NCBI GenBank assembly: GCA_900767605.1 | Contig: CAAFZT010000010.1 | Span: 171-64,170 of the forward strand | Origin: Bacilli bacterium | Lineage (GTDB): Bacteria; Bacillota_I; Bacilli_A; RFN20; CAG-826 | Direction of reading: 5' to 3' | Length of the DNA: 64,000 bases | Shown: positions 1 to 16,220 of the stretch, in pieces | Position numbering within the stretch: the first letter of the stretch is position 1 | Layout of the letters: the number at the start of each line of letters is the position of its first letter | Translations under genes and position numbers: made by a program | Notes under the pieces: generated by a model | The model's input: the letters and a program-made list of their open reading frames with translations, nothing else | The model's database searches: none | Told to the model about the DNA's origin: nothing

Positions 1-46
1 ACAAGAGACGATTCGATTTTATTTATACAACATCGTTTCCATTGCG

Positions 47-496
47 TTGAAACTGGAAGGCTTTGAGTTCAAGTATTTTACATGGAATTATAATCGTTAC
101 GATTATGGCGATGAGTTAAGCAAGGAATTGATTGAAAAAGTTAGGGAGCTATATCGAAAGTATCTGCCCTTATATCATCGATTGATCCATTATGTGATTC
201 ACGATAGTTGCTTTAATCCTGAGTTTTGCGACGTTTTTAAAAAACATTTGATTCGTGCGAATCTGGAAGAATTCTTTATTTTGGGCAATTGCAGTCATTC
301 CCTGACGTTAGTGATAAGCCTAGAGGAAGAAGTGAAAGATTATTTGATTAACGAGGTAAAAAGCGAGGAAGAACTAGGCAGCACATATCTTGAATATGCT
401 CTTTATAAAGGCGCCCATTTGACTAGGGACGAAGGTCTTTACGGCTGCATCCCTCACGAAGACTGCCTATACGAAGACGAAGAAGAGGAAGAATAA
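47..496 (+). CDS. hypothetical protein with poly-Glu C-terminus
   Basis: 149-aa ORF from the track (non-ATG start as drawn), ending ...LYEDEEEEE. No family motif recognised. Confidence 0.3.
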   Translation: MKLEGFEFKYFTWNYNRYDYGDELSKELIEKVRELYRKYLPLYHRLIHYVIHDSCFNPEFCDVFKKHLIRANLEEFFILGNCSHSLTLVISLEEEVKDYLINEVKSEEELGSTYLEYALYKGAHLTRDEGLYGCIPHEDCLYEDEEEEE

Positions 497-1550
497 TCGC
501 CGCAGAATTTGGTGAGTAAACTACTAGTTAGACAATCGCGAGCATTAATCGAAGACAAGTATTTGAACCAAGTGGCCCGTGTGAATGGAATCCGACGTCG
601 TTAACGTTGCAGATATTTATAAAAATGAAAAAACTGACACGATAACTTCGCAATAACCATATTGCAGGTTTTAGAAGGTGGTTAACGGATTTATAGAAGT
701 GGGCGATTGTTCCGTCGGATGCATGTCTCTTGCTGCTTTTACCTTATCAAAAAGATTGGATGCATAAAATCTTTAATTTTTTATGCACCAAATCTCCGAA
801 ACATGCTTGTTTTATGCATCAAATGTAGTTTCGACGGTGGTTCGTTATTATCGTAAGTAAGTGATTCGGTGGTAAGTTCGTTCTTATCCCCAAAGGGAAT
901 GGACCCTGCGGGTCGCGACGATGGATTATAGGAGCAAAAGAAGGACGGCATGGGGCTGCGGACATGAAACCGGGCGATATCATGGATGTCAAACCTCGGA
1001 ATCCCAAGGAATTTCTCTTTAGCCACGGCGGATACGCTTTAACCTCTGGTTATGGTCCACTAGTGGGTGTCATCACTTTGATCGTGTTCCTGTCCGAAGC
1101 CTGAATGAAAATCGGGCTCACTTTCGACTCCAATGCCATCAATCAGTTTTTGGCTTTCTCAAAGGCGGATTTAGAGGAAGCTTAGGCGACGGTTTTCTGC
1201 GTTCTTTCCATGAGCGAGCTCTTCCACATGCTTGGAACGGCCGACTTTAGAAAGAGCTTTATCCACGTCTTCAGGGGCCGTAACTATTTGCTTTGGGGAT
1301 CTTTATCATCGGATTGGCTTTGTAGTTCTTTGTCATATACACTCCGGGAGTCAAGGACATCTTCCAGGCTGTTCCACTTGTTGGGTATGACTTTGCCTGG
1401 GGCTTCGGCCTTGGGATTACTCCATTGATTGTTCGTGAGATTGTCGTTTTCGTGCTTTTCCTTAAAAAGAAGTTATCGGGGAAACGTTCCTGATTGCATC
1501 TAGGTAACCGCGGCCACGAAATATAGAAGAAAAGAGTGGGGCGATTAATG

Positions 1551-1575
1551 GAAAAAACGCCCAATTTTAGGGCGT
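1551..1575 (-). terminator. rho-independent terminator of the minus-strand DUF4417 operon
   Basis: On the minus strand, an ACGCCC-taaaatt-GGGCGT hairpin is followed by TTTTTT, about 40 nt after the stop of CDS 1617-2264. Confidence 0.6.
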
Positions 1576-1616
1576 CTCAAGGCATAATAGAGCATCAAGA
1601 GCCAATACTTTTTGTG

Positions 1617-2264
1617 CTAATCGTCAATAACATCGCCGATAATAAGTGCTTCGGATACAACTTCTTCTTTATTGGCTGACAAATAGATAAACTTCCTTGT
1701 AATGAACCCATCGTATGGTTTGGCGAATACTTTCCAATGTATTTCAATTGGCTGGATTTTTGATAGAACCTCATGCCCTTTAAACTCAAGGACGGTCTCG
1801 TCGAGCCAAGTGTTTTCTTTATAAAAAGCGTACTGCCTTTTGTCCGTAACTAGAACAACGCCTTCTGTGCTTGTGATAGTTTCGTGTGGGGCTTTGTTTT
1901 TGGAGACCAATATCTCGTCTTGGACGAGAATGATGTCGAGAATGGTCTCGTTAACAGGGTAGTTTTCAAATTTAGATAGTGAAAAACCGGAGAATGTCGT
2001 GAATTGGTCTTTGTTATCGATTTTTTCAAAGATTAAATGAGGGGTGTAATCTGGAGAGCAGAACCAATCGTCTTCCCAATCCACGCGGTTGTCTAAAACG
2101 AATCGCCCGTTTGAGCAGGTTAGACCAACACGCATAAGGAAATCATTGGCTGGTTGATGTCTTGGATCAAACGGCTCGTGTGAGTAAGAAATTAGTTTGT
2201 TCCCCAAAAGGGATCTTAATTTTCCCAAGCCTTCGCCCGTTATTGCGTTATTTAGTGTTTTCAT
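1617..2264 (-). CDS. hypothetical protein (third gene of DUF4417 operon)
   Basis: Start trimmed to the internal ATG (MKTLNNAI), which is preceded by AAGGAGA. It lies 4 nt after the upstream stop. No family recognised. Confidence 0.6.
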   Translation of the reverse strand: MKTLNNAITGEGLGKLRSLLGNKLISYSHEPFDPRHQPANDFLMRVGLTCSNGRFVLDNRVDWEDDWFCSPDYTPHLIFEKIDNKDQFTTFSGFSLSKFENYPVNETILDIILVQDEILVSKNKAPHETITSTEGVVLVTDKRQYAFYKENTWLDETVLEFKGHEVLSKIQPIEIHWKVFAKPYDGFITRKFIYLSANKEEVVSEALIIGDVIDD

Positions 2265-2268
2265 AGTT

Positions 2269-2634
2269 TTATTTCTCCTTTTCAAAGTGAATTTTTTGGC
2301 TTGCAATTCCAGCAGGATCGATGGATTTTCTCATTGATAGTTGTACGGCTGGTGCGTGTCCTGGCGGATAATCTATCCTCAATGAGACGGAAGTCCCGTC
2401 TTCCAGTTCGCAAACCCACATACGCTCCTTTTGTTTTTCTATTACTTTACCACCGGAGGTAAAACGTTCGAATAATTTTCTGGCTTCCTCTATCGGATTC
2501 CCGGATGCAAAAATTGTCCGAACAGTTTCTTTGTTTCCCGGTTTATGAATGCCAAAGTATCCATTTGCAGAATTAAAACCGTAAAAGGGATTTTGCTTTA
2601 CATGTACTGAATTTCGTCTAATGGTTACGCCCAT
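2269..2634 (-). CDS. hypothetical small protein (second gene of DUF4417 operon)
   Basis: Start trimmed to MGVTIRRN with an AAGGAGG SD, 1 nt after the DUF4417 stop. The C-terminal pattern ...DGTSVSLRIDYPPGHAPAVQL...KIHF is not assignable by eye. Confidence 0.55.
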   Translation of the reverse strand: MGVTIRRNSVHVKQNPFYGFNSANGYFGIHKPGNKETVRTIFASGNPIEEARKLFERFTSGGKVIEKQKERMWVCELEDGTSVSLRIDYPPGHAPAVQLSMRKSIDPAGIASQKIHFEKEK

Positions 2635-2635
2635 G

Positions 2636-3304
2636 TCAATTTCCTCCTTTCTTGTGTGTCTGCTCGAATTCCGAAGGGAACCTATGGAATCGCGTCTTAT
2701 TTTTGAAATCGCCGAATATATCGTCCGGCATGTAGCCGTATACAATGACGTCTTTTGGCTCCAATCGAATTAACATTTCTTTCAATCCGTGTTTGAAATA
2801 ATTTCGAAGCAAATTGTTGGTGGATTTGTCCCTTGCGATGGCCCCGTGCGTGCCGATAGAAACTACTGAGCCCTTTGGCACCCCAAGGAAGCAGAACTCA
2901 TATGTAGACGGATCTCCCCATCGGACATTTGGGATAACAGGGATGCCTTGTGTTTGTAAGTAAAATCCAATCGCGCGGTTCATGTATGTGCTTGTCGCAT
3001 GCAAACATCTCGATTTCCCGATAATAATGGTGGGGTCCGGTGTAATCACCCCGTCAAATTGTCTAAGCAAAGGAATGTATTTCTTTGTATTGGCTAAAAA
3101 ATCTCCATACTGAGAATCGTGGGTATAGAAATGAACATAACCCGTTTTTAGCAGATCGCTTTTCGCTTTGTTAAACGAAACTAACCTTTGGGGAATTTCG
3201 GCGTTGTTGGTGTCGTAGAGCTTTGGAATCCCGTCTCTTCCGTCGAAACTAGCGTTTTCTGTTAAATAGCTTTGAAATCCGTCGTCAAATATTGTTTTCC
3301 TCAT
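2636..3304 (-). CDS. DUF4417 domain protein
   Basis: Start trimmed to MRKTIFDD (AAGGAG SD). Motifs match my recollection of DUF4417: GYVHFYTHDSQY, FDGVITPDPT, GIPVIPNVRWGDPSTYEFCFLGVPKGSVVSI. Confidence 0.65.
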   Translation of the reverse strand: MRKTIFDDGFQSYLTENASFDGRDGIPKLYDTNNAEIPQRLVSFNKAKSDLLKTGYVHFYTHDSQYGDFLANTKKYIPLLRQFDGVITPDPTIIIGKSRCLHATSTYMNRAIGFYLQTQGIPVIPNVRWGDPSTYEFCFLGVPKGSVVSIGTHGAIARDKSTNNLLRNYFKHGLKEMLIRLEPKDVIVYGYMPDDIFGDFKNKTRFHRFPSEFEQTHKKGGN

Positions 3305-3425
3305 AGAAAACTCCTTCTTTATGATGTGTGCACGGACTGTTTTTGATACAATTTTCTTGCCGATTCGAAACAGTTCTCGAACACACCGATAGAATACAAG
3401 ACTATTTTTTTGGAATAGGAAGTCG

Positions 3426-3455
3426 GGGAAATCGAGGGAAATCGAGGGAAATTTC
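3426..3455. repeat. 10-bp tandem repeat in the divergent promoter region
   Basis: GGGAAATCGA GGGAAATCGA GGGAAATTTC, ending 5 nt before ATG 3461. Confidence 0.5.
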
Positions 3456-3460
3456 AAAAC

Positions 3461-4438
3461 ATGACTTTTTCTGATTTATGCAGGCTCATTAACCCATTCT
3501 TGCGGGGGCGATGCAAAAGCAAAGCGGATCTTTTTGATTTCCTGATTTTGAATATTATTGATCCAAATCGGAAAGCGCTTGCTGACGAGGTTAGCCGCTT
3601 AAGCGCCAAGCAAAAACGAAATATCGTGGATGGGAAAAGTTCTATTTCCAAACTTGCGGAGAAACTATATCCAAGCATGGATGTTTCTAATTTATGCGAT
3701 GCTTTACAGGATGAAGTAAAATTGATTGGCGAATACGCGGAGACGTTTGGCTGTTACGATAAAAGCATCAATAAGGACAACTTTGCCGAAGAAACTGCCG
3801 AAATTTTAAAACAGATAATTTTAGATAATTCTGCGTTGTTTCGAAGCGCTCAACTCGAGGGGACGGCAACTCTCCGGTCCCAACTTTTCGAAGAAGCCGG
3901 AGGGGTGTGTCCTGTTTGCGGCCGTCCGCTCGATTTAGACTCGACAAAAGAAAACGCAATTGTCGCCATCGGGTTAGATGGGTTCTCGCCGAGCAAAGCG
4001 GATAAAGCCATTGGCCTTTGCAGAAAATGCGCCGAATTGCACAGGAATGGCCAGATTGATAAGGATCTGTCGCTTGTCAAAGAGCGGCAGGAAGAAATGG
4101 CAAGTTTGAGGAATTGTGCGGGAAACATCAATATTGACGAAGCCCTTGCAACGGCAATTGATAGTCTTTTAAGAAGTGGTTGCGCGGAAAAAGTAAAATT
4201 CAATATGAAAAGTTTGAAAGTCGAACAAAAAATAGACGAAAAGGATAATTACATCCTTTGCAATAAGGTAAAAATGAATGTAGCTACTTATTTTTCGTTA
4301 CTCTACGGCTTCTTTGGAAAGATGGACGGGGAAGAACACCGATCTTACGATATGCTTTCCGCTTCTGTAAGGGTCGCCTTTTTACAAGCGGAAAAAGAAT
4401 CACAAAATAAAGAATATATCTTTAATTTTTTTAACTGA
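3461..4438 (+). CDS. ABC-3C-like effector-position protein with degenerate HNH-like zinc ribbon
   Basis: 325 aa with CPVC-33 aa-CRKC(AELH), a two-CxxC element without an obvious catalytic His. It is the first gene of a set followed by a small middle protein and a DUF2326-like ABC ATPase. Confidence 0.5.
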   Translation: MTFSDLCRLINPFLRGRCKSKADLFDFLILNIIDPNRKALADEVSRLSAKQKRNIVDGKSSISKLAEKLYPSMDVSNLCDALQDEVKLIGEYAETFGCYDKSINKDNFAEETAEILKQIILDNSALFRSAQLEGTATLRSQLFEEAGGVCPVCGRPLDLDSTKENAIVAIGLDGFSPSKADKAIGLCRKCAELHRNGQIDKDLSLVKERQEEMASLRNCAGNINIDEALATAIDSLLRSGCAEKVKFNMKSLKVEQKIDEKDNYILCNKVKMNVATYFSLLYGFFGKMDGEEHRSYDMLSASVRVAFLQAEKESQNKEYIFNFFN

Positions 4439-4521
4439 ACAGGTTTCAAAAGCTGCGACTTGCGAGAAATCTGTTGCGGAAATCATTGTTTCCTATTTTG
4501 TTCAAAGCTGTGAGGTATTCC

Positions 4522-4737
4522 ATGAGATTTCCGAATAAGGTAAATAGATATAGGACGACAACCATTTACCAAATGGTAGAAATCATGAACGTAATAAATG
4601 GCAACACATCATTGGTTGACCTTTTTTCGAGAGTGTCAAATATGATGGGCCCGAAAGAGTATTACGAAGCATTAAGCGCTTTGTACGCAGTTGGAAAAAT
4701 TAAATTTTTGGACGATGGGAGAATTGCCAAATGCTAA
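4522..4737 (+). CDS. small ABC-3C middle-component-like protein
   Basis: 71 aa from the ATG with a GAGG SD (the track ORF starts at 4474). The tail ...YYEALSALYAVGKIKFLDDGRIAKC looks like a small winged-helix. Its stop overlaps the ATPase start by 7 nt. Confidence 0.5.
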   Translation: MRFPNKVNRYRTTTIYQMVEIMNVINGNTSLVDLFSRVSNMMGPKEYYEALSALYAVGKIKFLDDGRIAKC

Positions 4738-6388
4738 AGGAAATTAAGTGTGAAAAGTTTACTGATCGGATTAAAGACAAAACTGTCCATTTTGCCCCTG
4801 GGCTAAATTGCATAGTTGGCGCAGACGATGCCGTTAATTCAATCGGCAAATCAAGCTTATTACTGATTATAGATTTTTGTTTTGGCGGAACGGATTACGC
4901 CGAAAATAGGGCGGACGTCATAGAAAACGTTGGGGATCACACGATTTGTTTTACGTTTGAGTTCGATTCGATTCAATTCCATTTTTCAAGAAATGTATCG
5001 GATTCGAACTTTTATTTCGAATGCGACAAATTCTATTCGCCAATCGGGGAGAAAAAGCCGATCAAAGAATTGCAGCGGTTCTTAAAAGAGCGATATTTTG
5101 GGAGCTCGATTCAATCGTCTTTTAGAAATGTCATCAATGTGTTTTCTAGGGTTTACGGCAAAGAGAATTATGACGTCAATAAACCACTGAAGACGTTTGG
5201 CAGAGACGCCAAAGATGAAAACGGCATTAAGGTTCTTCTCGATCTTTTTGGCAGACTCGGAGAATTAAACGAGGCAATCAGTAACATTAAAACTGCAAAG
5301 GATGGAAAAAAAGCACTGGATGATGCCAAAAAGTTCGGATTTATTTTTTCGCCTATAAAAACTGCGTCGGAGTACGATGAAACCCTGGCCGCCGTGCAGC
5401 GGCTCAAAGATGATTTGGACTCTTTGGTTAAAGATGAAAACGCCGCGAAAGTGGTAATCGATGAAAAGTTATCCCAAAAGGACATTGATTTGAAATCGAA
5501 GCAAATAGTTTTAATGAGACGAAAAAGAGCTTTGTCCATTCAACTGAATACATTCGAATCTATGACGGGCGATAATTTGATGATGAGCATCGACGACAAG
5601 GAAAAACTCCTTGCCGAATTCCCCAACTATGATGTGAGGCCCCTTTTGGAAATAAATGAGTTTCAAAGGCAATTAAGTAAAAATGTTAACGAACAAATTA
5701 ATGAACAAAAAGAAATCGTAAAAAAAGAAATCGCGGAAATTGATAGGCAACTTAAGGAAGTCAATGATGAGTTGTTGGAAACGATATTTCTCCAAGAATT
5801 TCAAAGGCTTTTTTAACTGCTGTTCTTGAGAAAAATGAGGAGATAAAAAAACTGGAATCTCAAATTGCACTCTACAGCAAAACCAACTCAATTAAAGAGA
5901 AAATTGAAAATGCTAAAGCAGATCTCGACAAGCGTTGTTCTTGTATTTTTCCTGAAATTGAAGGATTGATAAATGACGAACTAAAAAAATTAAACGATTG
6001 TATTTATTCCGAAAAGAGGCTCCCGCCAGCGTTGAAATTGGCGGACATCTCTCGTTACACATATAAAACTCCGAGGGATACGGGCACTGGCACCGAGTAT
6101 AAAAGTCTTATACTTTTTGATTTGGCTATTTTAAGGCTGACCTCGCTTCCGTTTATCATCAACGATTCGATGCTTTTTAAAAACATATGGGATGAGCCCG
6201 TTGAGGGATTGTTTAGACTATATGACCAGGAAAACAAACAAATTTTTCTCGCGATAGACAGGGTGGGAGCTTTTTGCAAAGAAGTCCAAGAAATAATTGA
6301 ACGACGCAAGTCGGTTAAATTGGGCGATGGAAATTGTGCATTGTTTGGTTTCGTTTGGTCTAAAGTTAACGAAACGTCGCAAAAATAA
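4731..6388 (+). pseudogene. ABC-3C ABC ATPase (DUF2326-like), split by a frameshift
   Basis: The N-terminal part (4731-5816) has FAPGLNCIVG...NSIGKSSLLLIIDFCFGG (Walker A) followed by a long coiled coil. The C-terminal part (open from 5771, track ORF 5966-6388, other frame) has LPFIINDSMLF (Walker B-like). Adding one T to the T6 run at 5809-5814 fuses both parts into about 552 aa. Confidence 0.7.
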
Positions 6389-6587
6389 AGCGTTTGGCCT
6401 TCAGTGACGCCCTTCTAATTTGCTGCATCCATTACATGACGCGAAACTTTTTGAAGAAAATCTGGCTTACCCACGAAAATATTTCGTTTTCTAAACGATG
6501 AAGAGGAAGGTTCGGAACTGGCCAAATTTTAAAATTACGAATGAGCCAAAGCATCTCAAATGAGAACAAATGTGGCTCGGATGGGAC

Positions 6588-7367
6588 TTAGATTTTGGCC
6601 TTCAGGTTCTTTGCACTTGTCTTCAATAGAGTTTTCCTCGTCACGAAGCGCGACATGAAATATTGGAACCGATTCCCTTTGCCGATGATGTAGAAGTCGT
6701 TGCCTTTCATGGACTGGGTATAGCCGATTTGGGCCACCTCTTTGGCCTCGATGGGTTTCTTCTTTTTGAAGGTGAAGTCGTTATGGGCCTCGGCGACGAA
6801 TTTGGAATTAAAGGGCCCCGGGCATAACGTTAAACACCTCACGTTGGTATTCCTTAATTCGAAGGATATCGCGCTGGATAAGTTATAAACGTAGCCTTTC
6901 ACCGCGTGATAGGTGCACATATAAGGCCCAGGATAAAGCCCGGCGATTGAGCATACGTTGATGATGTGTCCTTCGTCATTGGCAAGCATGTCGTCAAGAT
7001 AGACTCTTGAGAAATAAAGAAGGGCGTTGCAGCAGACGTTGGTCATGGCGATTTGCTTATAAATTTCCATGTCTTTGAAGTCTTTGCAGTCCCCAAAACC
7101 GGCGCAGTTGACAAGGTTATTGATAAATAAGTCGTTTTCTTTGGTGAAAGCTAAAACCCCGGCATAGGTTTCTTCATTGCTTAAGTCCGCGATGAAGGTG
7201 AAAACTTCGATATTAGGATCCTTTTTTTGAATTTCTTCTTTTACGGAAGCGAGGGCCTCGCCATTGATGTCGACTAAAACGACGTTATTTCCTTTTGAGG
7301 CGTAAAGCAAGGCAAATTCTTTGCCTAATCCGCTGCCGGCACCAGTAATTAAAGTGGCTTTCTTCAT
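6588..7367 (-). CDS. short-chain dehydrogenase/reductase (SDR) family oxidoreductase
   Basis: Carries the TGAGSGLG cofactor motif and the YHAVK (YxxxK) catalytic motif. Length is 259 aa. Confidence 0.85.
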   Translation of the reverse strand: MKKATLITGAGSGLGKEFALLYASKGNNVVLVDINGEALASVKEEIQKKDPNIEVFTFIADLSNEETYAGVLAFTKENDLFINNLVNCAGFGDCKDFKDMEIYKQIAMTNVCCNALLYFSRVYLDDMLANDEGHIINVCSIAGLYPGPYMCTYHAVKGYVYNLSSAISFELRNTNVRCLTLCPGPFNSKFVAEAHNDFTFKKKKPIEAKEVAQIGYTQSMKGNDFYIIGKGNRFQYFMSRFVTRKTLLKTSAKNLKAKI

Positions 7368-7605
7368 TGGTTGTTTCTCCCTGAATCTTTGGTTTTACAT
7401 GCATGGGGCACGTTTGTTGTACTGATTATATTCCGCGAGGAGAAGTGGGGAAAGAAGGGCGTTGCTGTTGAGGCTTTAATTTTTAACGTTTGATCACGGT
7501 GCTTTGGTTAAGGGAAAAACAGGAGAGAGCAACAGCCAATTTTGTAAACAAAAAGCCAGAAAATACGTACTACAGTACAAAAAACAATGCTTTTTTTGTG
7601 TTTTT

Positions 7606-7614
7606 TGGTAAAAT
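7606..7614 (+). promoter_or_regulatory. extended -10 (TGgTAAAAT), probably giving a leaderless mRNA
   Basis: The -10 ends 6 nt before ATG 7621, and no SD lies in between. Confidence 0.4.
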
Positions 7615-7620
7615 GAATTC

Positions 7621-8283
7621 ATGAATATTTATCATGGAAGCAAGCAAGTGGTAGAGCATCCAACATTGGGCGGCTCCAACCCCCACAATGATTACGGCCC
7701 TTCTTTTTACATGACAACCGACCTTAACCAAGCAAAATCTTGGGCGTGCAAAAACGGAACCGCCGGGGTGGTTAATCAATATCGAATCGATGATCGGAAA
7801 TGGGACTCCTTAAAGATTTTGGATTTAACGCGCAAAGATTTCTTTAGTGTTTTGAATTGGATTGCCATTCTGATGCACTTTAGAAAATTGGAAACATCCT
7901 TCGAACGTAGAAATCAGCCGGCTTTAGAATGGCTATCGAAATATTTTATCGATGTCAGGGAATATGACGTCGTCATTGGATTTCGCGCGGATGATTCCTA
8001 TTTCCGGTTTCCTTCTTCATTTGTTTCAGGGGAATTGTCCCTCGATGATTTGGAGGAAATCTTTCTTCTTGGCGACTTGGGAAAACAATACGCCTTTATG
8101 TCTCAAAAAGCGCTGAATGCTTTGCATTTTGACCGTGTTATCCCCTGCGAAGAAGAATATGTTGGGCGTTACTATTCCATCGTCGGCAAAGCTACGGCTA
8201 AATTTAACGAGGTTCTTAATTGGCCTCGTAGCCCCGATAAAACATACGTTCTTGATTTGATGAGAAAAGACCATGTACGCTGA
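7621..8283 (+). CDS. DUF3990-like protein (possible ADP-ribosyltransferase fold)
   Basis: N-terminal MNIYHGS, then NDYGPSFYMTTDLNQAKSWA, as I recall for DUF3990. See the finding on the H-Y-E-like pattern. Confidence 0.6.
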   Translation: MNIYHGSKQVVEHPTLGGSNPHNDYGPSFYMTTDLNQAKSWACKNGTAGVVNQYRIDDRKWDSLKILDLTRKDFFSVLNWIAILMHFRKLETSFERRNQPALEWLSKYFIDVREYDVVIGFRADDSYFRFPSSFVSGELSLDDLEEIFLLGDLGKQYAFMSQKALNALHFDRVIPCEEEYVGRYYSIVGKATAKFNEVLNWPRSPDKTYVLDLMRKDHVR

Positions 8284-8878
8284 ATATCTTCACGAATATA
8301 CGGACGACCTAGAAAGGGTATTATCCCTAGGTTATCATTGCGGCTATTCCACTTCGGCATTGGAAAGGAAAATCGCCTATTCTTCTTTCTTTTTAAAGCT
8401 AGAAGACGATGGTTTAGGATTGCCCCCGATTGTTCATGACGAGGACCTTGTTAAAGAAGTGCTTTCGGAGATAAAAACCCCTTTGAAGGATGTGCCCGTT
8501 TATAATCCGTGCCTTTGGGCAGCGGAAGCCTTTCTTCGTATTCAATTGGAAACGCGATTAACCTTTGAATGCATTTTCTTATATCTTCCAATTGCTAAGA
8601 TGTATGAATTCTTTCCATTATTTCATGAAATGGATTTCTCTCAAATCGTTCAAGAGTTTAAAAGGCGTTATCACGAAAAATCCGCTTTTGCTATTTTGCT
8701 AGAAAATTACGGCTATTCCCTGAAATATGTTTCCGAGCAAACGGGGCTATCCTATGATAGTTTGCAAAGTTGGAAACAAAGAAGAAGAAACATCCAAAAT
8801 GGCAATGTTAAAGATGTATTTAAATTGGCCAGGGTCTTCCATGTTCGCATGGAAACCATCGCCGAACTTCCCCAATAG
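8273..8878 (+). CDS. DUF3791-like / XRE-type HTH partner protein
   Basis: Overlaps the upstream stop by 11 nt. The C-terminus ...LKYVSEQTGLSYDSLQSWKQRRRNIQNGNVKDVFKLARVFHV is an XRE-like helix-turn-helix. Confidence 0.55.
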   Translation: MYAEYLHEYTDDLERVLSLGYHCGYSTSALERKIAYSSFFLKLEDDGLGLPPIVHDEDLVKEVLSEIKTPLKDVPVYNPCLWAAEAFLRIQLETRLTFECIFLYLPIAKMYEFFPLFHEMDFSQIVQEFKRRYHEKSAFAILLENYGYSLKYVSEQTGLSYDSLQSWKQRRRNIQNGNVKDVFKLARVFHVRMETIAELPQ

Positions 8879-8899
8879 TCCTTATAGAACCTCGCGAGC

Positions 8900-9039
8900 G
8901 TTATTGCGATTACGAAACGAAGAAGGGGGTTTCCTTTTTTGTAACGTTTAAAGATTTTGACGAAGTAATTCGGATCGTCATAGCCGACAAAGTGCACGAC
9001 TTCCCCGATAGGCAAATCGGCTTGAACAACAAGAAACAA
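8900..9039 (-). pseudogene. AraC-family regulator C-terminal stump
   Basis: The translation ...LPIGEVVHFVGYDDPNYFVKIFKRYKKGNPLLRF matches the last HTH of AraC/XylS proteins. No N-terminal part is present; it abuts the AT-rich leader of the ATPase gene. Confidence 0.55.
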
Positions 9040-9093
9040 CCATTATAATATTTTTATAAATCGTAAATTACAAAATCGTAAATTATAAAAATT

Positions 9094-10473
9094 ATGAAAT
9101 TCATCGGAAGAGAGCAAGAGCAAAAAACCATACAAAGATTGATGTCCAAAGACGGGTATCAAGGATGCGTGATTTATGGACGTAGGCGCATGGGGAAGAC
9201 GGAACTTGTCCGCAAGTGCGTTTTGGAACAAAAAAGCCCCATCGTTATGTATCAATGCAAGGAATCCAACGAGCAGGATAACGTAGAGATGCTGACGGGC
9301 CTGTTACGTACGGTTTTGAATAACCCTTATTTGTCTTTTGCTACCTTCGTGGACGCGGTGAGGTTTCTTTTCGACTATTCCAAAGACCAGGAAATCATCT
9401 TAGTTTTGGACGAGTATCCTTATCTTAAAAACTTGATCGATGGCTGCGATTCCAAATTGCAAAGCATCATCGATGATCACGCGATGGACTGCAACCTTAA
9501 GCTGTTTCTGCTTGGAAGCAGTATATCCACGATGGAAGACATCTTAAACCACGACAATCCCCTTTATATGCGGTTTCAAACTTCGATTCTTTTAAAGCAA
9601 ATGGATTATTGGGATTCGGCGCAGTTTTACCCTCATTATTCCAACGAAGATAAAGTTCGCATGTACGCCGCTTTTGGCGGGGTTCCTTATTTCAATGCCC
9701 AAATCGATGATCGCATTAGCCCAAAAGAGAATATGATTCGCCTTCTCAGCGGCCAATTCTCGGGCATGAAGGAATTCTTGGACACTTATTTAAAGCAGGA
9801 ACTAAGAAAGGTGAATAGCGCGAACGCGGTGTTCGAGGCCGTTGCCTTAGGAGCGTTCCATTATACGGATATCCTGTCCAAGTCTCGTGTGGAGTCCTCT
9901 CCGCTTTTAAATGGCGTTCTCCAAAAACTTACCAAGATGGATTTGGTGGAATACGTCTCCCCCATCAATAACAAAAACGATAAGCAAAAATCGGGGTATT
10001 GCATTAGCGATTCCTGCGTGAAGTTCTATTATCATTTTGTTTACCGGAATGCATCAGCACACGCCCTTCTTGATGACGATATTTTCTATGAGAAATTTAT
10101 TCATGAGGATTTTGAAAAATTCTTTGTGCCGAAAACGTTTGAAGAAATATCGAAACAATTCCTGGTTCGTCTCAATAAAAAAGGCCAATTAGAACCGATG
10201 CTGATTGATATCGGCACTTATTGGTACGATCAGCCAAGCCAAAGGAAAAACGGCCAGTTTGATGTCGTTGGGAAAACCGAAGACGGCTATGTTTTCTTTG
10301 AATGTAAATACACGAACTCGCCATTGAGTGATGAGGTTATTAAAGAGGAACTGGAACAAGTCGCGTCTACGACGTTGAAGCCGGTCCAATATGGATTCTT
10401 CTCGAAGAATGGTTTTGATCTTAAAAACCACTACACGTATCTCTTGTATTCGTTAGAAGACCTGTATCGTTAA
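9094..10473 (+). CDS. AAA+ ATP-binding protein (archaeal-ATPase/DUF234-type)
   Basis: Has FIGREQEQKTI...VIYGRRRMGKTELV (Walker A) and ILVLDEYPYL (Walker B). Length is 459 aa. Confidence 0.8.
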   Translation: MKFIGREQEQKTIQRLMSKDGYQGCVIYGRRRMGKTELVRKCVLEQKSPIVMYQCKESNEQDNVEMLTGLLRTVLNNPYLSFATFVDAVRFLFDYSKDQEIILVLDEYPYLKNLIDGCDSKLQSIIDDHAMDCNLKLFLLGSSISTMEDILNHDNPLYMRFQTSILLKQMDYWDSAQFYPHYSNEDKVRMYAAFGGVPYFNAQIDDRISPKENMIRLLSGQFSGMKEFLDTYLKQELRKVNSANAVFEAVALGAFHYTDILSKSRVESSPLLNGVLQKLTKMDLVEYVSPINNKNDKQKSGYCISDSCVKFYYHFVYRNASAHALLDDDIFYEKFIHEDFEKFFVPKTFEEISKQFLVRLNKKGQLEPMLIDIGTYWYDQPSQRKNGQFDVVGKTEDGYVFFECKYTNSPLSDEVIKEELEQVASTTLKPVQYGFFSKNGFDLKNHYTYLLYSLEDLYR

Positions 10474-10490
10474 ACGCATTTTCGAGAACA

Positions 10491-10520
10491 AAAAACGAGC
10501 CTCATGCGGGGCTCGTTTTC
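10491..10520. terminator. bidirectional terminator
   Basis: AAAAACGAGCC-tcatgcgg-GGCTCGTTTT lies between convergent genes. Confidence 0.7.
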
Positions 10521-10535
10521 GTTGTTGGGTTGAGA

Positions 10536-12338
10536 TTAATTCAAGGTTCCTTCGCCGAAGGTGCCTTGGCGGAAGTGGCATTGAATAACGTATTCTTCGC
10601 CGCTAGGATCGGTGACATCCACATGGACATCCCATCCCAAGGGCCAGTTTTTGTCGAGGCCGATGTTCATTGTGATATATAGTTGAACTTGGCCGTTGTT
10701 CGTGTTTTGAACGATGTATTCTTTTGCCAAAATCTTAGTGTCGCCAAGATAGGGCGTGCATGCGTCTTTGAATTCACCATCCCCAATATAGGAAATAGTG
10801 AACTTGGCTTTGAATTGGTAGTTTTTCGCATTCTCCATCGTCATTTTGAGGACGCTGTTATCTACCATGAGGGTCATGCCAGCACCTTCAATGTTGCCAT
10901 TGTTTACTTTCAAGGCGTTTTTGGGCTCGGTCGAAGGTTGAGAAACGGTGATTGCTCTTTCGGCGGTGTAGGTCTTGCCGGCAAGTGTCATCGTAATGGC
11001 AAGCTTGCCTTGTCCTTTAGCTACGCCTTTGATGGTAGCTACGCCACCATCCGCGGTAACAGTGAATAATTCCGGGTTCTTGCTTTCGAATGCAAAGGTT
11101 GCATCGCCATCAAGATAGAAGCCCTTTTCGGCTTTCACTTCGGCGGTCGCACCCACTTTGACGGAGGTCGCGCCGCTGACGTTTAACGGAAGAGCCACTT
11201 TATCGTTTTTAAAATTAACCGTTCCTTCATAAACAACGTTGTTGGCCGTGTCTTTGAAGGTCACTTTGATGGCAAGTGGATTGCCGGCAGGAGCGCCGCT
11301 CATGACGACGTAGAGTTCACATTGATCGGCGGGGCCTTGGAAGAACTGGTTCTGGATGGTGAATGAGCCCGTAGTGATTTCCACTGTGCGCTCTAAATTC
11401 TTTAGTTGCTCAGGAGTAAGTCCCATGGCGGTTGCATTGATGCGAACGAACGCGCCAGCGCCATCAACGGCGCAGGTATCCAAGAAGACAACCTCTTTCT
11501 TTGTGGCAGCCTGGGCTTTGACGTTAATCGCATGAGTTAACGAAGCAACAACGGCTCCATCCGTCATCTTGCAGGTAACAACAGCGTCGCCACCTTTTTC
11601 ACCGTGGATGGTAGCAGTTTTACCATTGGCTTTGATGGAAACGGCATCACTAGAAGTGGTCCATTCAAAGGTCGCGGTTTCGGATGTGTATTTCGTGACG
11701 GCTTCTAACGTAATGTCTTCACCAGCAGAAATCGCATTGGCGCCTTTGATTGCAGAAAGCTTCGGGGTGGCGTCTTCGCAAGTGTAATAGAAATCGATGG
11801 AACTAAAAGAGGTTCCTTCCCCAGCGCCAAAGGCAAAAAAGACCTTTTTCGCGTTGGTTCCGTCAACAACGGTGTTGAGTTCGTAGGCTTTTTCGCTCAC
11901 TGCACCAATCGCTTGGCCACCTAGGTTTTTCTCCCCGTAATCAAAGAACGTGGAGTTGGCTTCGGTTTTGGAAACCATGTCATTGATGACAACCTTATGG
12001 AAGCCAGCGCCAGCGCGTTTGTTCGCAGAGACGCTGGATCCCGAGTAGTCAACGTTGAAGATGGTTCCGCCAGAAATGGTGGCGGTGGAACCGGCGACGG
12101 AAGCCCCGTCTACGTGGAATTTCGTTCCGGAAACGATGAAATCCCCAGCTTTTCCATCTTTAATACCGGCGGCGATGTCCGCTGCGGAAACACGAATCAT
12201 CATCGTGTTGGATTCTTCCGCGTGCATCGGAAGAACGTTTTTCAATCCTCCGCCAAAATAATTAGCGGTCACTACGCCTGCGGCTGCTAATGAGCCCGCA
12301 AGAATGGCGATGGAGAGAACTTTTAAATTCTTTTTCAT
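10536..12338 (-). CDS. secreted/surface protein with Ig-like repeats
   Basis: Start trimmed to MKKNLKVLSIAILAGSLAAAG (signal/anchor). The rest is T/V/A-rich repeated beta-type segments. Confidence 0.6.
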   Translation of the reverse strand: MKKNLKVLSIAILAGSLAAAGVVTANYFGGGLKNVLPMHAEESNTMMIRVSAADIAAGIKDGKAGDFIVSGTKFHVDGASVAGSTATISGGTIFNVDYSGSSVSANKRAGAGFHKVVINDMVSKTEANSTFFDYGEKNLGGQAIGAVSEKAYELNTVVDGTNAKKVFFAFGAGEGTSFSSIDFYYTCEDATPKLSAIKGANAISAGEDITLEAVTKYTSETATFEWTTSSDAVSIKANGKTATIHGEKGGDAVVTCKMTDGAVVASLTHAINVKAQAATKKEVVFLDTCAVDGAGAFVRINATAMGLTPEQLKNLERTVEITTGSFTIQNQFFQGPADQCELYVVMSGAPAGNPLAIKVTFKDTANNVVYEGTVNFKNDKVALPLNVSGATSVKVGATAEVKAEKGFYLDGDATFAFESKNPELFTVTADGGVATIKGVAKGQGKLAITMTLAGKTYTAERAITVSQPSTEPKNALKVNNGNIEGAGMTLMVDNSVLKMTMENAKNYQFKAKFTISYIGDGEFKDACTPYLGDTKILAKEYIVQNTNNGQVQLYITMNIGLDKNWPLGWDVHVDVTDPSGEEYVIQCHFRQGTFGEGTLN

Positions 12339-12452
12339 CTTTGCTGATTTCCTTTCTGCCCCTTTGTTTAGGATGCATTGCAAATGATGTATGGTTTAAA
12401 CCATATTATGTAACAATAATAGAATGTGGTTTCCCGTTTTTCAATAAGTTTT

Positions 12453-12466
12453 AGAAACCGCTTTCT
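12453..12466. promoter_or_regulatory. LacI-family operator-like palindrome
   Basis: The sequence is AGAAACCGCTTTCT, identical to the site at 20452-20465. It lies upstream of CDS 10536-12338. Confidence 0.45.
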
Positions 12467-12509
12467 TAACGATGATTAGCCATCTTTTTTTCAAAAAACG
12501 TCATTTTTC

Positions 12510-12521
12510 GAAATCGGTTTC
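12510..12521. promoter_or_regulatory. LacI-family operator-like palindrome
   Basis: GAAATCGGTTTC. Confidence 0.35.
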
Positions 12522-12630
12522 TCAATTTATTAAGTTCCCATCAACACTTCCTTGGTTGTTTCCCTGCTGTTTCGTAAATCATTTCCTCTTTGGCACGGGA
12601 AAGGAGAAGGGCAAATCGCTTAACGCGGGG

Positions 12631-15597
12631 TTATAAAGTCCAACTCGTGAAGGAATGGGCTTCCGCTTGGATGGTTTTGGCTTGTCCATTCACGTGGCAA
12701 GTTAATGTTTCCTTGGAGGAAGAGGGATTCCAAACCATGGCGCGACGTGCCCCGTTATTGTTATAAACGGTCGCACTGCAATAGGTGCTGGGATCAAAGT
12801 AGGCATCAACGTCTTTATTCCCGTATGTGTTGAGACCATGCACCATCCAATAGGAACCGATTAATTCGTTTTTGTAATCGTCGCTTTGAATTTTTGCGCT
12901 ATCAAATTGGCTCATCGCGGCAGAAGGGTTGACTAAAGCTTCGACTGCCCACATGTTGGAGAACCAGTTTCTGGGGGCACCTCCGCATTTTCTTTCCATT
13001 TCAGAATAGATTTTTTGGAATACGGTCTTTTCCTTTTCCCCGATGACGTAATGGCTTAGATATTCTCCGGTTGGGAGCCAATGGATGCCATAAATGAATT
13101 CGGGATTCGAACCAAACCATGTGGCACAGCTGTTCTTTCCACCCCAAAGAATTCCAATGACGTGGGTGTAATTGGCCAAGGAGTCGATCCAATTATCTTC
13201 GTCATAGTTAAACCAATATTGCTTGATGGATGTCATTTCCGTGGCAAATCCATAGGCAGCAGCATTGGAAAGAGAAGTGTCTCCTAGGGCTTTTGCCAAT
13301 AAATATCCTGCCGTCCAACTATTGAGGGCTTCTCCACAACTTTCTTGGTCGTTCCCGTCTCCAAAATCGCCGATTCCGTCCGCCCAACTATGCCCTGCAT
13401 AGGAATCAAATCCACGCAAAACGGGCATCTTTTCGTTCGAACCGTCATTCATGTAATCCTGAAGGACGAGTTTGGCCATGGAACCGTATTGGCTTAAGAA
13501 TGCCAAATCGTACATGGCAAGAACTGCAGAAGCAAAAACAAGGTACCCGGAAGTGAAGTGGTGATCGGAAATACGGGTGTTATTGGAGAAATTATTCGTG
13601 GAATAAAGCAATGAGCCAAATTTCTCGTCGAAGAAGAAATAACGAACGTCGTCCTTCCCCGAATAGGTGAACCAGTCTACTAACAAGGTTTTAAGACGAC
13701 CTTTTAACGAATCGCGAAGGGCTGTTTCCCCAATCTGGTCCGCGGCGATAAGGGCTTGGGACAAAGGATAAAGAGCTTTGGCATTCCAATAGGGCCCCGG
13801 GGCATTGGCAAAATCTTTGGAGGAATCCTTCCAATCAAGGGAGACGTTGCTAGAAAGTTTGGTATCGTCCAAAAGGGTATTCATCCACCCCTTCAAGGCG
13901 TTTTTATCGACGCCACTAGGGAGGACAAAACTAGGGAGAACGCCATAGAAATCGTTTTTCGTCTCAAACGTATGGTCGGGAAGCATTTTGCTGGTTCCGC
14001 GGAATGTCTTTTTCGTGTATTTCGAAGGAACGGCTTCACTCTTCTTCCATTGATGGGGAAAGAGGGAGAGTAGACCCTTCTCATCGGATTCGATGAAATT
14101 TTGTCGGTTGGATCGGAATTTCGTTGTTATGGTCTTCCCCTCGATTTGGTATTCGGAATGAAGGGACAAGGGGACGGAATAACCGTGTTGGTGAAAGAAA
14201 GGAGCCTCCTCCACGTTGTTTATGGAGGCGATGGAAACTAAATTTCCTTCTCCTAACGTCAAATCCACTTGAGCCATGAATGCGGCATTGAGCTGTGAAC
14301 CTTGGCTAAAGGTGAAAGTGGTGTTTTTTGGAACGTTAACAAGATACCAAAGGTCTTGATATTGGGCGGCTCCAACCGCGGAGCTTGGGAAGGTGGTGGC
14401 GTAGCCGTAATGAACGTTAGGATAACGAACTACTAACGCCTCTCCTTTGTAAGAGGAACCCGTTATTTTTTCTCCGGATACGGTATAGAACTCATAGGGT
14501 GCTGCGCATCCTGCAGTGCGGAGATTTATCTGAAGGTTCGACGTTTTGCTTTCAAAGAAGGCGTAAGGGGAAGACTCACTTCCTTTAAACACCATTTCAT
14601 CTTCTCCGTTTTCTATGGTGCGTAAAGAAAGTTCAACGGAGGATTCGCTATAATCGCTTACAAACACTTTCGGCGTCCCTTTTAGCCCAACAGGAGCGAG
14701 GGTTAAATCCGTGAAAGTTGGCCGGAAATTCTCCATCGTGGTTTGCTTGGCTCCCGTAGTATCAGGAGCATCAAAATATTGGGTGAATCCCGTTCCTCTA
14801 CAGGAAATTTGGAATCCATTCCCAAAAGAAACGTCTAAGGGGTTCATGCATAAAGCGGTGGACCCGCCGTTATTTCCATACATCATTCCCGTGAAGAACT
14901 GGTTGGAAGGCACGGCTCCTTTGTTATAGAGGCGAGCATCCAAATTAACGGGGTCTGGTGCTCTTTTGAAAAGGTTTTCGTTATCTCCGACAGCAGAAGG
15001 AACGTTGCCAGTTCGATAACTTCCTTGGCCCAAGGTTACCGTTCGATCTTCTCCTTCCCGCTCAACGCGTTGAGGATAAACAAACGGGCTATCATCCACG
15101 ATAATGGTTCGCGTCACGGATCCAGAAGACTGATTTTCGTTTACCGAATAAGTAAGGGCATATTCGCCTTTCTTTCCATAGTCGACGAAACCTTTTACTT
15201 GAATACAGTCCGTTAAATCCACGCCATTTTGGCTTTTAGCGGTCACACCGTCTAAAGCGTGAAAATAATGACCGACGGACCAATGCGTCGTGCCGATTCC
15301 TTCAAAAAGAACATTTCCTACCGGTTCTGGGTCGGGGATATCAGTATCACTTGTGGAGGAATTATATGAATTACTGGAGGAACTAGATGAAGAGGAAGTG
15401 CTAGAAGAAGGGCTTTCAGAAGAAGGATGGCTACTTGGGGACTCGCTTTCGCTTGAACTGGGTTCATTTTCGGAACTCGCAGAAGAGCTGTCTACAAAGT
15501 TTGAATTGCTAGAGGAACTTTGGGAGGGAGTAGACCCACACGCCGCTAATAGCAACGAAGAAGTGGCAAGAGCTAAGAGAATTTTTGATTTTTTCAT
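12631..15597 (-). CDS. GH81 endo-beta-1,3-glucanase lipoprotein
   Basis: Start trimmed to MKKSKILLALATSSLLLAACGS (lipobox), followed by a Ser-rich linker. Motifs ISDHHFTSGY, FDSYAGHSWADG and GNDQESCGEALN match GH81 signatures. Confidence 0.8.
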   Translation of the reverse strand: MKKSKILLALATSSLLLAACGSTPSQSSSSNSNFVDSSSASSENEPSSSESESPSSHPSSESPSSSTSSSSSSSSNSYNSSTSDTDIPDPEPVGNVLFEGIGTTHWSVGHYFHALDGVTAKSQNGVDLTDCIQVKGFVDYGKKGEYALTYSVNENQSSGSVTRTIIVDDSPFVYPQRVEREGEDRTVTLGQGSYRTGNVPSAVGDNENLFKRAPDPVNLDARLYNKGAVPSNQFFTGMMYGNNGGSTALCMNPLDVSFGNGFQISCRGTGFTQYFDAPDTTGAKQTTMENFRPTFTDLTLAPVGLKGTPKVFVSDYSESSVELSLRTIENGEDEMVFKGSESSPYAFFESKTSNLQINLRTAGCAAPYEFYTVSGEKITGSSYKGEALVVRYPNVHYGYATTFPSSAVGAAQYQDLWYLVNVPKNTTFTFSQGSQLNAAFMAQVDLTLGEGNLVSIASINNVEEAPFFHQHGYSVPLSLHSEYQIEGKTITTKFRSNRQNFIESDEKGLLSLFPHQWKKSEAVPSKYTKKTFRGTSKMLPDHTFETKNDFYGVLPSFVLPSGVDKNALKGWMNTLLDDTKLSSNVSLDWKDSSKDFANAPGPYWNAKALYPLSQALIAADQIGETALRDSLKGRLKTLLVDWFTYSGKDDVRYFFFDEKFGSLLYSTNNFSNNTRISDHHFTSGYLVFASAVLAMYDLAFLSQYGSMAKLVLQDYMNDGSNEKMPVLRGFDSYAGHSWADGIGDFGDGNDQESCGEALNSWTAGYLLAKALGDTSLSNAAAYGFATEMTSIKQYWFNYDEDNWIDSLANYTHVIGILWGGKNSCATWFGSNPEFIYGIHWLPTGEYLSHYVIGEKEKTVFQKIYSEMERKCGGAPRNWFSNMWAVEALVNPSAAMSQFDSAKIQSDDYKNELIGSYWMVHGLNTYGNKDVDAYFDPSTYCSATVYNNNGARRAMVWNPSSSKETLTCHVNGQAKTIQAEAHSFTSWTL

Positions 15598-15616
15598 AAG
15601 GTAGTGCCTCATTTTA

Positions 15617-15630
15617 GGAAAACGGTTTCC
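15617..15630. promoter_or_regulatory. LacI-family operator-like palindrome in the GH81 leader
   Basis: GGAAAACGGTTTCC, 20 nt upstream of the GH81 ATG. Confidence 0.45.
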
Positions 15631-15734
15631 CCTTCGAAAATATACCATAAAATTTAATTGTTGTAAGGGCTTTCAAAGAAAAGAACAACGAACTTTTCCC
15701 CCTCTCGTGGACGTGTTTCCCCTCAAAGATTACA

Positions 15735-16220
15735 ATGGAATGGATGAACCGATTCGACGATTTAGAAAAAATTTCTGTGTTAAAAAAACAGAGGATTGTT
15801 GGTTTGTTGCTCGCCGTTTTAATCGCGGTTCTATTTTTCCTTGGTTTCCTTTTTTGCTTCCTTTTCCAAACCCGCGCTACCATGATCGCGTGGGTGATTG
15901 GAACTACGGCCTTTTCCATAGTTTGCATTACGTTTTTCCTCTATTCCTTTTTCGTGCTTTATCAGCCGGTAAATGTTTATCTCAAGCTTTTGACGAACCC
16001 CAAAAAGAAGGAAAATTATGAAACGGGGATTTTTCTTAAACTAGGCGAATATACAGAAACTCATCAAGGGGTTGTCTGTAGAATTCTTTGGGTGGAACAA
16101 AACGAAAAAACGTTGCAAATCCCTGTTCAAAAGGATGAGAAGATCGAATTGAAACCAGGAAGTTCCTACCGGTTTTTATTAAAAAGCGACATCGTGATTG
16201 GATGGGAGGAAGGACAATGA
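15735..16220 (+). CDS. membrane protein, function unknown
   Basis: 161 aa with two clear hydrophobic helices and a soluble tail. Confidence 0.5.
   Translation: MEWMNRFDDLEKISVLKKQRIVGLLLAVLIAVLFFLGFLFCFLFQTRATMIAWVIGTTAFSIVCITFFLYSFFVLYQPVNVYLKLLTNPKKKENYETGIFLKLGEYTETHQGVVCRILWVEQNEKTLQIPVQKDEKIELKPGSSYRFLLKSDIVIGWEEGQ

Follow-up and report, generated by a model that had tools for sequence, protein, structure and literature searches.

We describe a three-gene operon at positions 3461–6388 of a 64,000-nucleotide (nt) stretch of contig CAAFZT010000010.1 from a Bacilli bacterium (assembly GCA_900767605.1); the whole stretch is called the window, and positions refer to it throughout. The operon very probably belongs to the type II Lamassu systems, which defend against phages and plasmids, as a member of a branch defined by the CTD11, MC7 and DUF2326 families, and carries a long-form effector with a dead HNH module; frameshifts have killed it in this genome, and contigs from the same species carry it intact or broken at other sites. 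What is out of the ordinary here is that the HNH active site has been lost across the long-form family and that the operon is strictly paired with a divergent DUF4417 operon.

Organisation of the operon and assignment to type II Lamassu

As found, the first open reading frame (ORF; 3461–4438, 325 amino acids, aa) carries two cysteine pairs, C150-P-V-C153 and C187-R-K-C190, separated by 33 residues. An 83-nt gap (4439–4521) precedes the 71-aa ORF, and the ATPase ORF starts 7 nt within that small gene. The ATPase frame is broken, with 4731–5816 (361 aa) in frame 0 and the remainder in another frame, open from 5771 to 6388. GLNCIVG...NSIGKSSLL is read at its N-terminus, with the Walker A motif NSIGKS at residues 36–41, followed by a long helical insert and, close to the C-terminus, LPFIINDS, in which the Walker B motif FIINDS ends in Asp-Ser, not Asp-Glu. 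The operon has a GC content of 39.3%, compared with 45.3% for the entire window. The gene order, couplings, cysteine motifs, ATPase motifs and AT-richness that an earlier note on this DNA, made from the letters alone, had described were all recovered (Table 1).

Table 1. Features of the Lamassu-like locus, with window positions, strand and the basis for each.
Feature	Position	Strand	Basis
lmuA-like effector pseudogene	3461..4538	+	ORF as found stops at 4438 (325 aa); alignment to 358–360-aa homologs
Effector parts: helical N-domain, aa 1–145; four-Cys HNH-like module lacking catalytic residues, aa ~146–200; ABC-3C CTD11 docking domain, aa ~205–358			
lmuC-like middle component, 71 aa, intact	4522..4737	+	MC7 match; 100% identical to the L001 copy
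lmuB-like SMC/Rad50-type ABC ATPase pseudogene, 552 aa if repaired	4731..6388	+	Pfam; PADLOC; intact alleles P0300/P0304; homologs of 546–551 aa
Frameshift 1	4426..4432	+	T7 in the window, T6 in all six conspecific contigs
Frameshift 2	5779..5781	+	A3 in the window, A4 in all six conspecific contigs
10-nt unit GGGAAATCGA, 3.6 tandem copies in the effector 5' leader	3418..3452	+	TRF; ends 9 nt before the ATG
Extended -10-like element TGATACAAT (TGGTACAAT in relatives), likely effector-operon promoter	3343..3351	+	Conserved alignment block; inferred, not listed by the consensus scan
DUF4417 protein, 222 aa from the homologs' ATG, first gene of the divergent operon	2636..3304	-	Pfam DUF4417 (1e-38); synteny; homologs of 216–230 aa
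Conserved 121-aa protein, second gene	2269..2634	-	tblastn, 50–69% identity in L003–L007; gene calls
Conserved 215-aa protein, third gene	1617..2264	-	tblastn, 31–63% identity in L003–L005 and L007; gene calls
Hairpin and U-run GACGCCCUAAAAUUGGGCGUUUUUU, likely intrinsic terminator of the divergent operon	1552..1578	-	Seen in the RNA fold and read from sequence; not listed by the terminator scan

Profile searches placed all three proteins in ABC-three-component (ABC-3C) families. Effector residues 220–322 match the Pfam CTD11 domain of ABC-3C systems (E=3.6e-12), and the 71-aa protein matches Pfam ABC-3C Middle Component 7 (MC7; E=7e-11) and the phage family phrog_6259 (E=8.6e-12). The N-terminal piece of the ATPase matches Pfam AAA_23 (E=4e-6) and SMC_N, and the C-terminal piece DUF2326 (E=2e-16). 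When repaired to 552 aa, the ATPase matches the PADLOC LmuB model (PDLC03859) at 1.8e-16 across residues 4–420 and the candidate model PDC-M68B at 3e-10. Every related locus examined (L002–L007, L013–L019 and L023/24) has the same three genes, in the same order and overlapping where they meet, an arrangement kept in more than ten distinct lineages; the assemblies of these relatives are labelled Bacilli, Bacillales or Firmicutes metagenome-assembled genomes (MAGs). With profile matches for each component and co-occurrence in all related loci examined, the ABC-3C reading proposed in the earlier note holds.

In the literature, ABC-3C is equated with type II Lamassu, which comprises the effector LmuA, the middle component LmuC and the SMC-like ATPase LmuB and is represented in Vibrio cholerae by DdmABC. 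Since this family has been validated experimentally and its structures have been solved, the description of these systems as largely untested is out of date at the family level; it may hold for the CTD11/MC7/DUF2326 branch, for which a literature search by the names DUF2326 and PDC-M68 found no experimental work.

The operon thus has the SMC/Rad50-like ATPase, the small middle component, the effector docking domain and the three-gene co-occurrence by which Lamassu is recognised. What it lacks is a recognisable toxic enzymatic effector domain, as the catalytic His/Asn/His are replaced and, for the N-terminal domain (N-domain), neither a family nor a fold nor any conserved polar residue was found. 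Further results tell against the assignment: the effector and middle component match no PADLOC LmuA or LmuC model, and when the ATPase profile was searched against the PDB, the best match to a solved LmuB was only 9hqu_A (DUF3732) at E=0.002. The effector profile found the HNH protein 9k32_A as its best, weak PDB match (E=0.07). The PADLOC candidate pair PDC-M68 is likewise incomplete here, the window effector (also searched as P0001) matching no PADLOC model, PDC-M68A included.

A long-form effector with a degenerate HNH module

The AlphaFold (AF2) model of the effector has predicted local distance difference test (pLDDT) values of 80–95 over residues 1–215. For residues ~130–215, the top Foldseek matches are the HNH domains of Cap5 from cyclic-oligonucleotide-based antiphage signalling systems (CBASS; prob 0.99, E~0.1) and of Cas9, and the literature assigns ABC-3C effectors to the Cap5/SPARHA HNH clade. 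To this fold the long form adds an all-helical N-domain of ~145 aa, which short forms do not have.

An exhaustive profile search of the effector family yielded 658 representatives, of which 140 were aligned, 103 of them long forms; 30 short forms were scored. The short forms (~250 aa; CPxCG...AHIYP...NxIxLCxxCH) keep the first His in 28/30, the Asn in 30/30 and the last His in 28/30, and they match the PADLOC Cap5-type endonuclease models, P0076 and P0099 matching PDC-M68A at 9e-15 and 5e-19, respectively. In the long forms (350–440 aa), whose four cysteines lie ~150 residues into the protein, the first His, the general base, is present in 0/103, the Asn in 81/103 and the last His in 10/103. 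The window effector, 358 aa when intact, has G/K/A at the three catalytic positions and keeps the four zinc cysteines C150, C153, C187 and C190; despite these zinc ligands it therefore lacks the His/Asn/His that marks the Cap5 clade. The absence of a catalytic His had been noticed before in this one protein and proves to be a property of the whole long-form branch. In the same HNH clade, H53A or N71A/H80A substitution abolishes nuclease activity.

We found no relative for the N-domain. Ten diverse N-domains gave no consistent Pfam match, and Foldseek found nothing in the PDB and BFVD beyond HNH matches and a single phage homolog that is itself uncharacterised; both results weaken the case for this protein as a Lamassu effector. 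Nor is any polar residue of the N-domain invariant across the 103 long forms. A motif picked out by eye (Y..G.R.I...A..I) had suggested an XRE-type helix-turn-helix (HTH); this was rejected, as hhalign against a small XRE alignment gave a probability of 0.09% and Pfam no consistent match.

The effector is therefore a derived long form that has kept the zinc cysteines and HNH fold, lost the catalytic His-Asn-His and gained a helical N-domain. Loss of the catalytic residues makes HNH-catalysed DNA cleavage impossible as its output, and with the active site gone and no invariant polar residue in the N-domain, its most probable role is non-catalytic, in DNA binding or in engaging a partner. It is improbable that long forms still cut with other residues in place of the lost ones, or with an active site newly arisen in the N-domain. 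Such activity could draw on the Asn, a metal-binding residue that most long forms retain, on D173, E192 and R195, which are invariant within the close subfamily of the window effector, and on the maintained fold and zinc cysteines, but the general base is missing from every long form and the window's own subfamily has lost the Asn as well; the equivalent substitutions kill activity in the same clade, and the N-domain offers no invariant polar residue as a replacement.

Frameshifts in the window and among conspecific contigs

Exact-sequence look-ups provided six further contigs of the same species (L001 and L008–L012), which are at least 99.4% identical at the locus and also carry its flanking genes where they reach far enough. 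The seven sequences were compared column by column over window 3300–6500. Frameshift 1 costs the CTD11 domain its last 35 residues, including SYFVQSCEVF, the most conserved motif of the family. With T6 restored, the effector gene encodes 358 aa and runs to 4538, 17 nt into the middle-component gene, and the homologs (358–360 aa) read ...FNFLTEQVS...SYFVQSCEVFHEISE beyond the window stop. The 83-nt gap, to which the earlier note had drawn attention, is real in the window allele and arises because T7 cuts the effector ORF short. Frameshift 2 leaves the ATPase native through residue 350, followed by 11 out-of-frame residues, so that the second coiled-coil arm and the half of the head carrying the signature and Walker B motifs are lost. 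A break at the T6 run at 5809 was ruled out, as the conspecific comparison places the missing A at 5779–5781. The earlier note had thus rightly seen a broken ATPase frame and had missed the second frameshift, in the effector gene.

Both T7 and A3 are unique to the window among the seven sequences. A separate ENA scaffold, L020, matches the window at 100% identity over 1636 bp and carries the A3 allele too. L001, 99.4% identical over the operon, has A6 for A7 at 5306, which cuts the ATPase at 208 aa, and in L008 CTCT has become CT at 5870, cutting it at 387 aa. The operon is intact in L009 (GCA_037412675.1), L010 and L012 (358/71/552 aa), and in L011 it is intact across the covered part, with a complete MC7 protein and 552-aa ATPase, the effector gene being cut by the contig end. 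In all, four contigs are intact and three are independently broken, with four frameshifts set against 11 single-nucleotide polymorphisms in the 2.9-kb operon.

All other indels in the 14 kb shared with conspecifics, bar one, are intergenic or a multiple of 3. This exception, the sole frame-changing coding indel outside the operon, is a 1-bp length difference from L009/L010 at window 487, 9 nt before the stop of ORF 47–496, which encodes an acidic tail (...EDEEEEE). In L006, a MAG from a different species, homopolymer frameshifts have broken the same operon twice, once in an A7 run within the invariant QKRN motif of the effector (L006:1150–1170) and once in an A-run of the ATPase (L006:3070–3090); its DUF4417 neighbour aligns as a single unbroken stretch.

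The operon is dead in this genome, the additional T cutting the docking domain and the missing A the ATPase. Because each of the conspecific contigs has either an unbroken operon or an ATPase gene frameshifted independently at another site, the locus has been lost repeatedly and recently. Expression of Lamassu is reported to come at a cost to growth, and the loss is probably driven by the autoimmunity or fitness cost known from such systems; the alleles are most simply explained by a costly system having been lost several times in the recent past. The locus should accordingly be annotated as a pseudogenised defence operon and not as a working system.

One objection is that every sequence compared is a metagenome-derived assembly, from which the allele calls were read, and that, of the four frameshifts seen within the species, three fall in runs of A or T, so that they might be sequencing or assembly errors at homopolymers in an operon that is intact and functional in the organism. 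We consider this highly improbable. Frame-breaking indels are confined to the 2.9-kb operon within 14 kb compared against 4–6 assemblies, bar the 1-bp difference near the stop of ORF 47–496; the A3 allele recurs in the separate scaffold, the truncated ORFs of the window are recorded in NCBI and ENA alike, and the unrelated L006 is frameshifted twice in the same operon beside an unbroken DUF4417 gene. Moreover, one event is the loss of a CT dinucleotide and another fell in an A4 run, too short to be error-prone.

The same tracts could instead be reversible phase-variation switches or sites of transcriptional or translational slippage, leaving the operon OFF and not dead; a costly abortive-infection system would gain from such switching. 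Changes between T6 and T7 and between A7 and A6 are classic slippage products, the intact operon has nine runs of at least six A or T, and the copy number of the 10-nt leader repeat (below) is variable as well. This too seems improbable to us, because tracts of 6–7 nt rarely slip, the A4-to-A3 and CTCT-to-CT events lie outside switch-like tracts, the window would require two independent reversions, and each lineage is struck at a different site with no single dedicated tract. Repeated loss therefore remains our preferred account.

A divergent DUF4417 operon adjoins the Lamassu genes

Three tightly packed genes on the minus strand, encoding the DUF4417, 121-aa and 215-aa proteins, diverge from the effector gene. 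By tblastn, this triad, or as much of it as the contig holds, adjoins the Lamassu operon in L002–L007, with outer flanks that differ. DUF4417 occupies the same divergent position in loci whose effectors are only 35% and 29% identical, so that across the effector subfamily synteny of the divergent operon holds for effector identities between 60% and 29%, with DUF4417 at 55–70% identity, and the pairing is also recovered when the search starts from a DUF4417 homolog. The three Lamassu genes do co-occur, as the earlier note had it, but the conserved unit is one of six genes, the divergent operon having been missed.

The AF2 model of DUF4417 has a pLDDT of 89. Its best PDB matches are generic alpha/beta enzymes (E>=0.03, template modelling score, TM, <0.5), and phmmer against the PDB found nothing. 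The 'nuclease' label of phrog_940 was not adopted, since only profile positions 169–341 of 388 are matched, and no function was assigned. The 121-aa and 215-aa proteins have no Pfam, PADLOC, PHROG or NCBIfam match.

Divergence among the conspecific contigs changes in a step, from 0.04–0.21% over window ~500–6400 to 2–5% in the right flank, with the boundary between the ATPase stop (6388) and a short-chain dehydrogenase gene (6588–7367). This suggests that the cassette was recently transferred or swept; being far less diverged than the right flank, it moves or sweeps as one block. No flanking direct or inverted repeats marking the cassette as an integrated element were found.

All six genes could form the functional unit, in which the dead-HNH LmuA would adapt the signal or bind DNA as a regulator and the real effector activity would come from the DUF4417 triad, a possibility that we raise tentatively and think more doubtful than not. 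It would explain an effector with neither catalytic residues nor an invariant polar residue in its N-domain, and it fits the divergent adjacency in every locus of the effector subfamily despite differing outer flanks, the low divergence of the cassette (<=~0.2%) beside a 2–5% right flank, and the conserved tandem repeats between the two operons. Synteny is, however, what the candidate functional link is drawn from, and several observations speak against it: DUF4417 is also found without Lamassu, beside a type I restriction–modification system; no DUF4417 accompanies a very distant long form found in phage-like surroundings, nor does the one short HNH form locus examined have a DUF4417 neighbour; and DUF4417 has no recognisable fold or activity. 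Defence genes also often cluster without interacting, and the frameshifts strike the Lamassu half only.

Leader repeats and putative promoter

The effector leader contains a tandem array of the unit GGGAAATCGA; no other such array occurs in the window, for which chance alone would predict 0.02. Its copy number varies within the species, L001 having one unit fewer, and an equivalent array of 3–4 GGRAANT units at 10-nt spacing occupies the same place in L002–L007 and L015/16 (35–60% protein identity). Some gene callers translate the array as a false N-terminal extension (EIEGNRGKFQNM). A -10-like element, TGnTAnAAT, lies upstream of the array in diverged loci. RNAalifold predicts no pairs for the leader, and the array is a possible operator or translational-control site. 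In the locus with the 29%-identical effector (L019:690–830), two TGTAAAC units lie 10 nt apart at the same position in place of GGGAA units; in this single case, a binding protein and its site might have changed together.

Surroundings of the locus

Two further loci downstream, both on the forward strand, match PADLOC candidates. At 7621–8878, a 220-aa DUF3990 protein matches PDC-M42A (E=3.8e-34), PDC-M13 and PDC-M10A, and its gene overlaps that of a 201-aa partner with a weak C-terminal HTH; the two are probably another candidate defence pair. At 9094–10473, a 459-aa DUF234/ATPase_2 protein matches PDC-S27 (E=1.3e-39). Because the Lamassu cassette, the DUF3990 pair and the DUF234 protein lie together, the region from 1.6 to 10.5 kb looks like a defence island.

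A 15-nt inverted repeat (87% complementary; 6402–6416 and 7453–7467) flanks the short-chain dehydrogenase gene, and one of its arms is overlapped by an exact 15-nt direct repeat, AAAGAAGGGCGTTGC (7016–7030 and 7451–7465); these repeats may be due to chance. At the other end, window 640–1550 is a stretch of ~0.9 kb in which no ORF exceeds ~100 aa but whose sequence is almost the same in L009 and L010; its minus-strand fold z-score is -2.6, and it may be a decayed gene. There is no tRNA in the entire window and no Rfam family in 1–16000, and a permissive Rfam search of 400–1700 returned only a sub-threshold sroD match at 1551–1631.

The distant long-form CTD11/MC7/DUF2326 triad of L013 (L013:1–9000) lies beside genes for VapE, DNA polymerase A, an Enc34-type single-stranded DNA-binding protein and a PDDEXK protein, a context that looks like a phage or satellite. 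As this context is phage-like and the effector and middle component match the phage families phrog_6948 and phrog_6259, some such systems appear to be phage-carried.

Comparison with known systems

DdmABC of Vibrio cholerae (Cap4-CTD7/MC3/DUF3732) shares with the window operon the order of effector, middle component and SMC-like ATPase, the overlapping genes, the C-terminal ABC-3C docking domain, a short ATPase (~550–600 aa) and a deviant Walker B motif. The two differ in family at all three positions (CTD7/MC3/DUF3732 compared with CTD11/MC7/DUF2326), and the similarity of the window ATPase to solved LmuB is marginal (E=0.002). Whereas the effector of DdmABC is an active Cap4 nuclease, that of the window combines a dead HNH with a helical domain that has no known relative, in a copy that is frameshifted.

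Closer are the short-form HNH-CTD11/MC7/DUF2326 systems (PDC-M68), which we take to be the 'HNH' subtype of short Lamassu of Haudiquet et al. 2025. They have the same three families and gene order, a homologous zinc-knuckle module and an ATPase of the PDC-M68B type that the window ATPase matches. Their effectors, however, are ~250 aa long with catalytic AHIYP...N...CxxCH, whereas the window effector, longer by 145 residues at its N-terminus, no longer has the catalytic residues and gives no match to PDC-M68A. The CBASS Cap5/SPARHA HNH clade provides the best structural match for effector residues ~130–215, but the window operon has no SAVED or Argonaute partner and its effector lacks the clade's catalytic His/Asn/His.

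Short-Lamassu 'clade O' has seemingly lost its LmuA effector domain (Haudiquet et al., PNAS 2025). Compared by description only, it resembles the present branch as a Lamassu lineage without a recognisable active effector domain that keeps full-length LmuC and LmuB; in the present branch, by contrast, the effector domain has not been deleted but has degenerated and been extended.

Proposed mechanism and implications

In the solved Lamassu with a Cap4 nuclease, an LmuB dimer and LmuC sequester one LmuA monomer through its C-terminal domain, and once DNA ends are sensed, LmuA is set free and assembles into a tetramer, the active nuclease. By analogy with these complexes, the LmuB dimer and LmuC of the present branch would hold one effector monomer by its C-terminal docking domain, and foreign DNA ends or hairpins, once sensed, would release it to oligomerise and act. 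The released long form would then most probably act by non-catalytic DNA binding or by engaging a partner, for which the divergently adjacent DUF4417 three-gene operon would be the best candidate. A more specific version, in which the released dead-HNH protein oligomerises as a DNA-binding protein on the 10-nt repeats and regulates the DUF4417 triad, its own operon or the two together, with the triad carrying out defence, is in our view very unlikely to be right; if true, an SMC-type DNA sensor would be coupled to a regulatory output rather than to direct killing.

For the host, the seven near-identical contigs are a natural record of what the system costs, and their intact alleles are available for cloning. 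For the family, few SMC-based defence systems are as widespread as Lamassu, whose mechanism is understood only for the versions with a Cap4 nuclease; published structures do not explain how its non-nuclease effectors work, and the DUF4417 triad is a concrete candidate. With 103 of the 140 aligned representatives keeping the sensor and docking machinery without a nuclease active site, the long-form branch points either to an output without catalysis or to a partner module that takes over.

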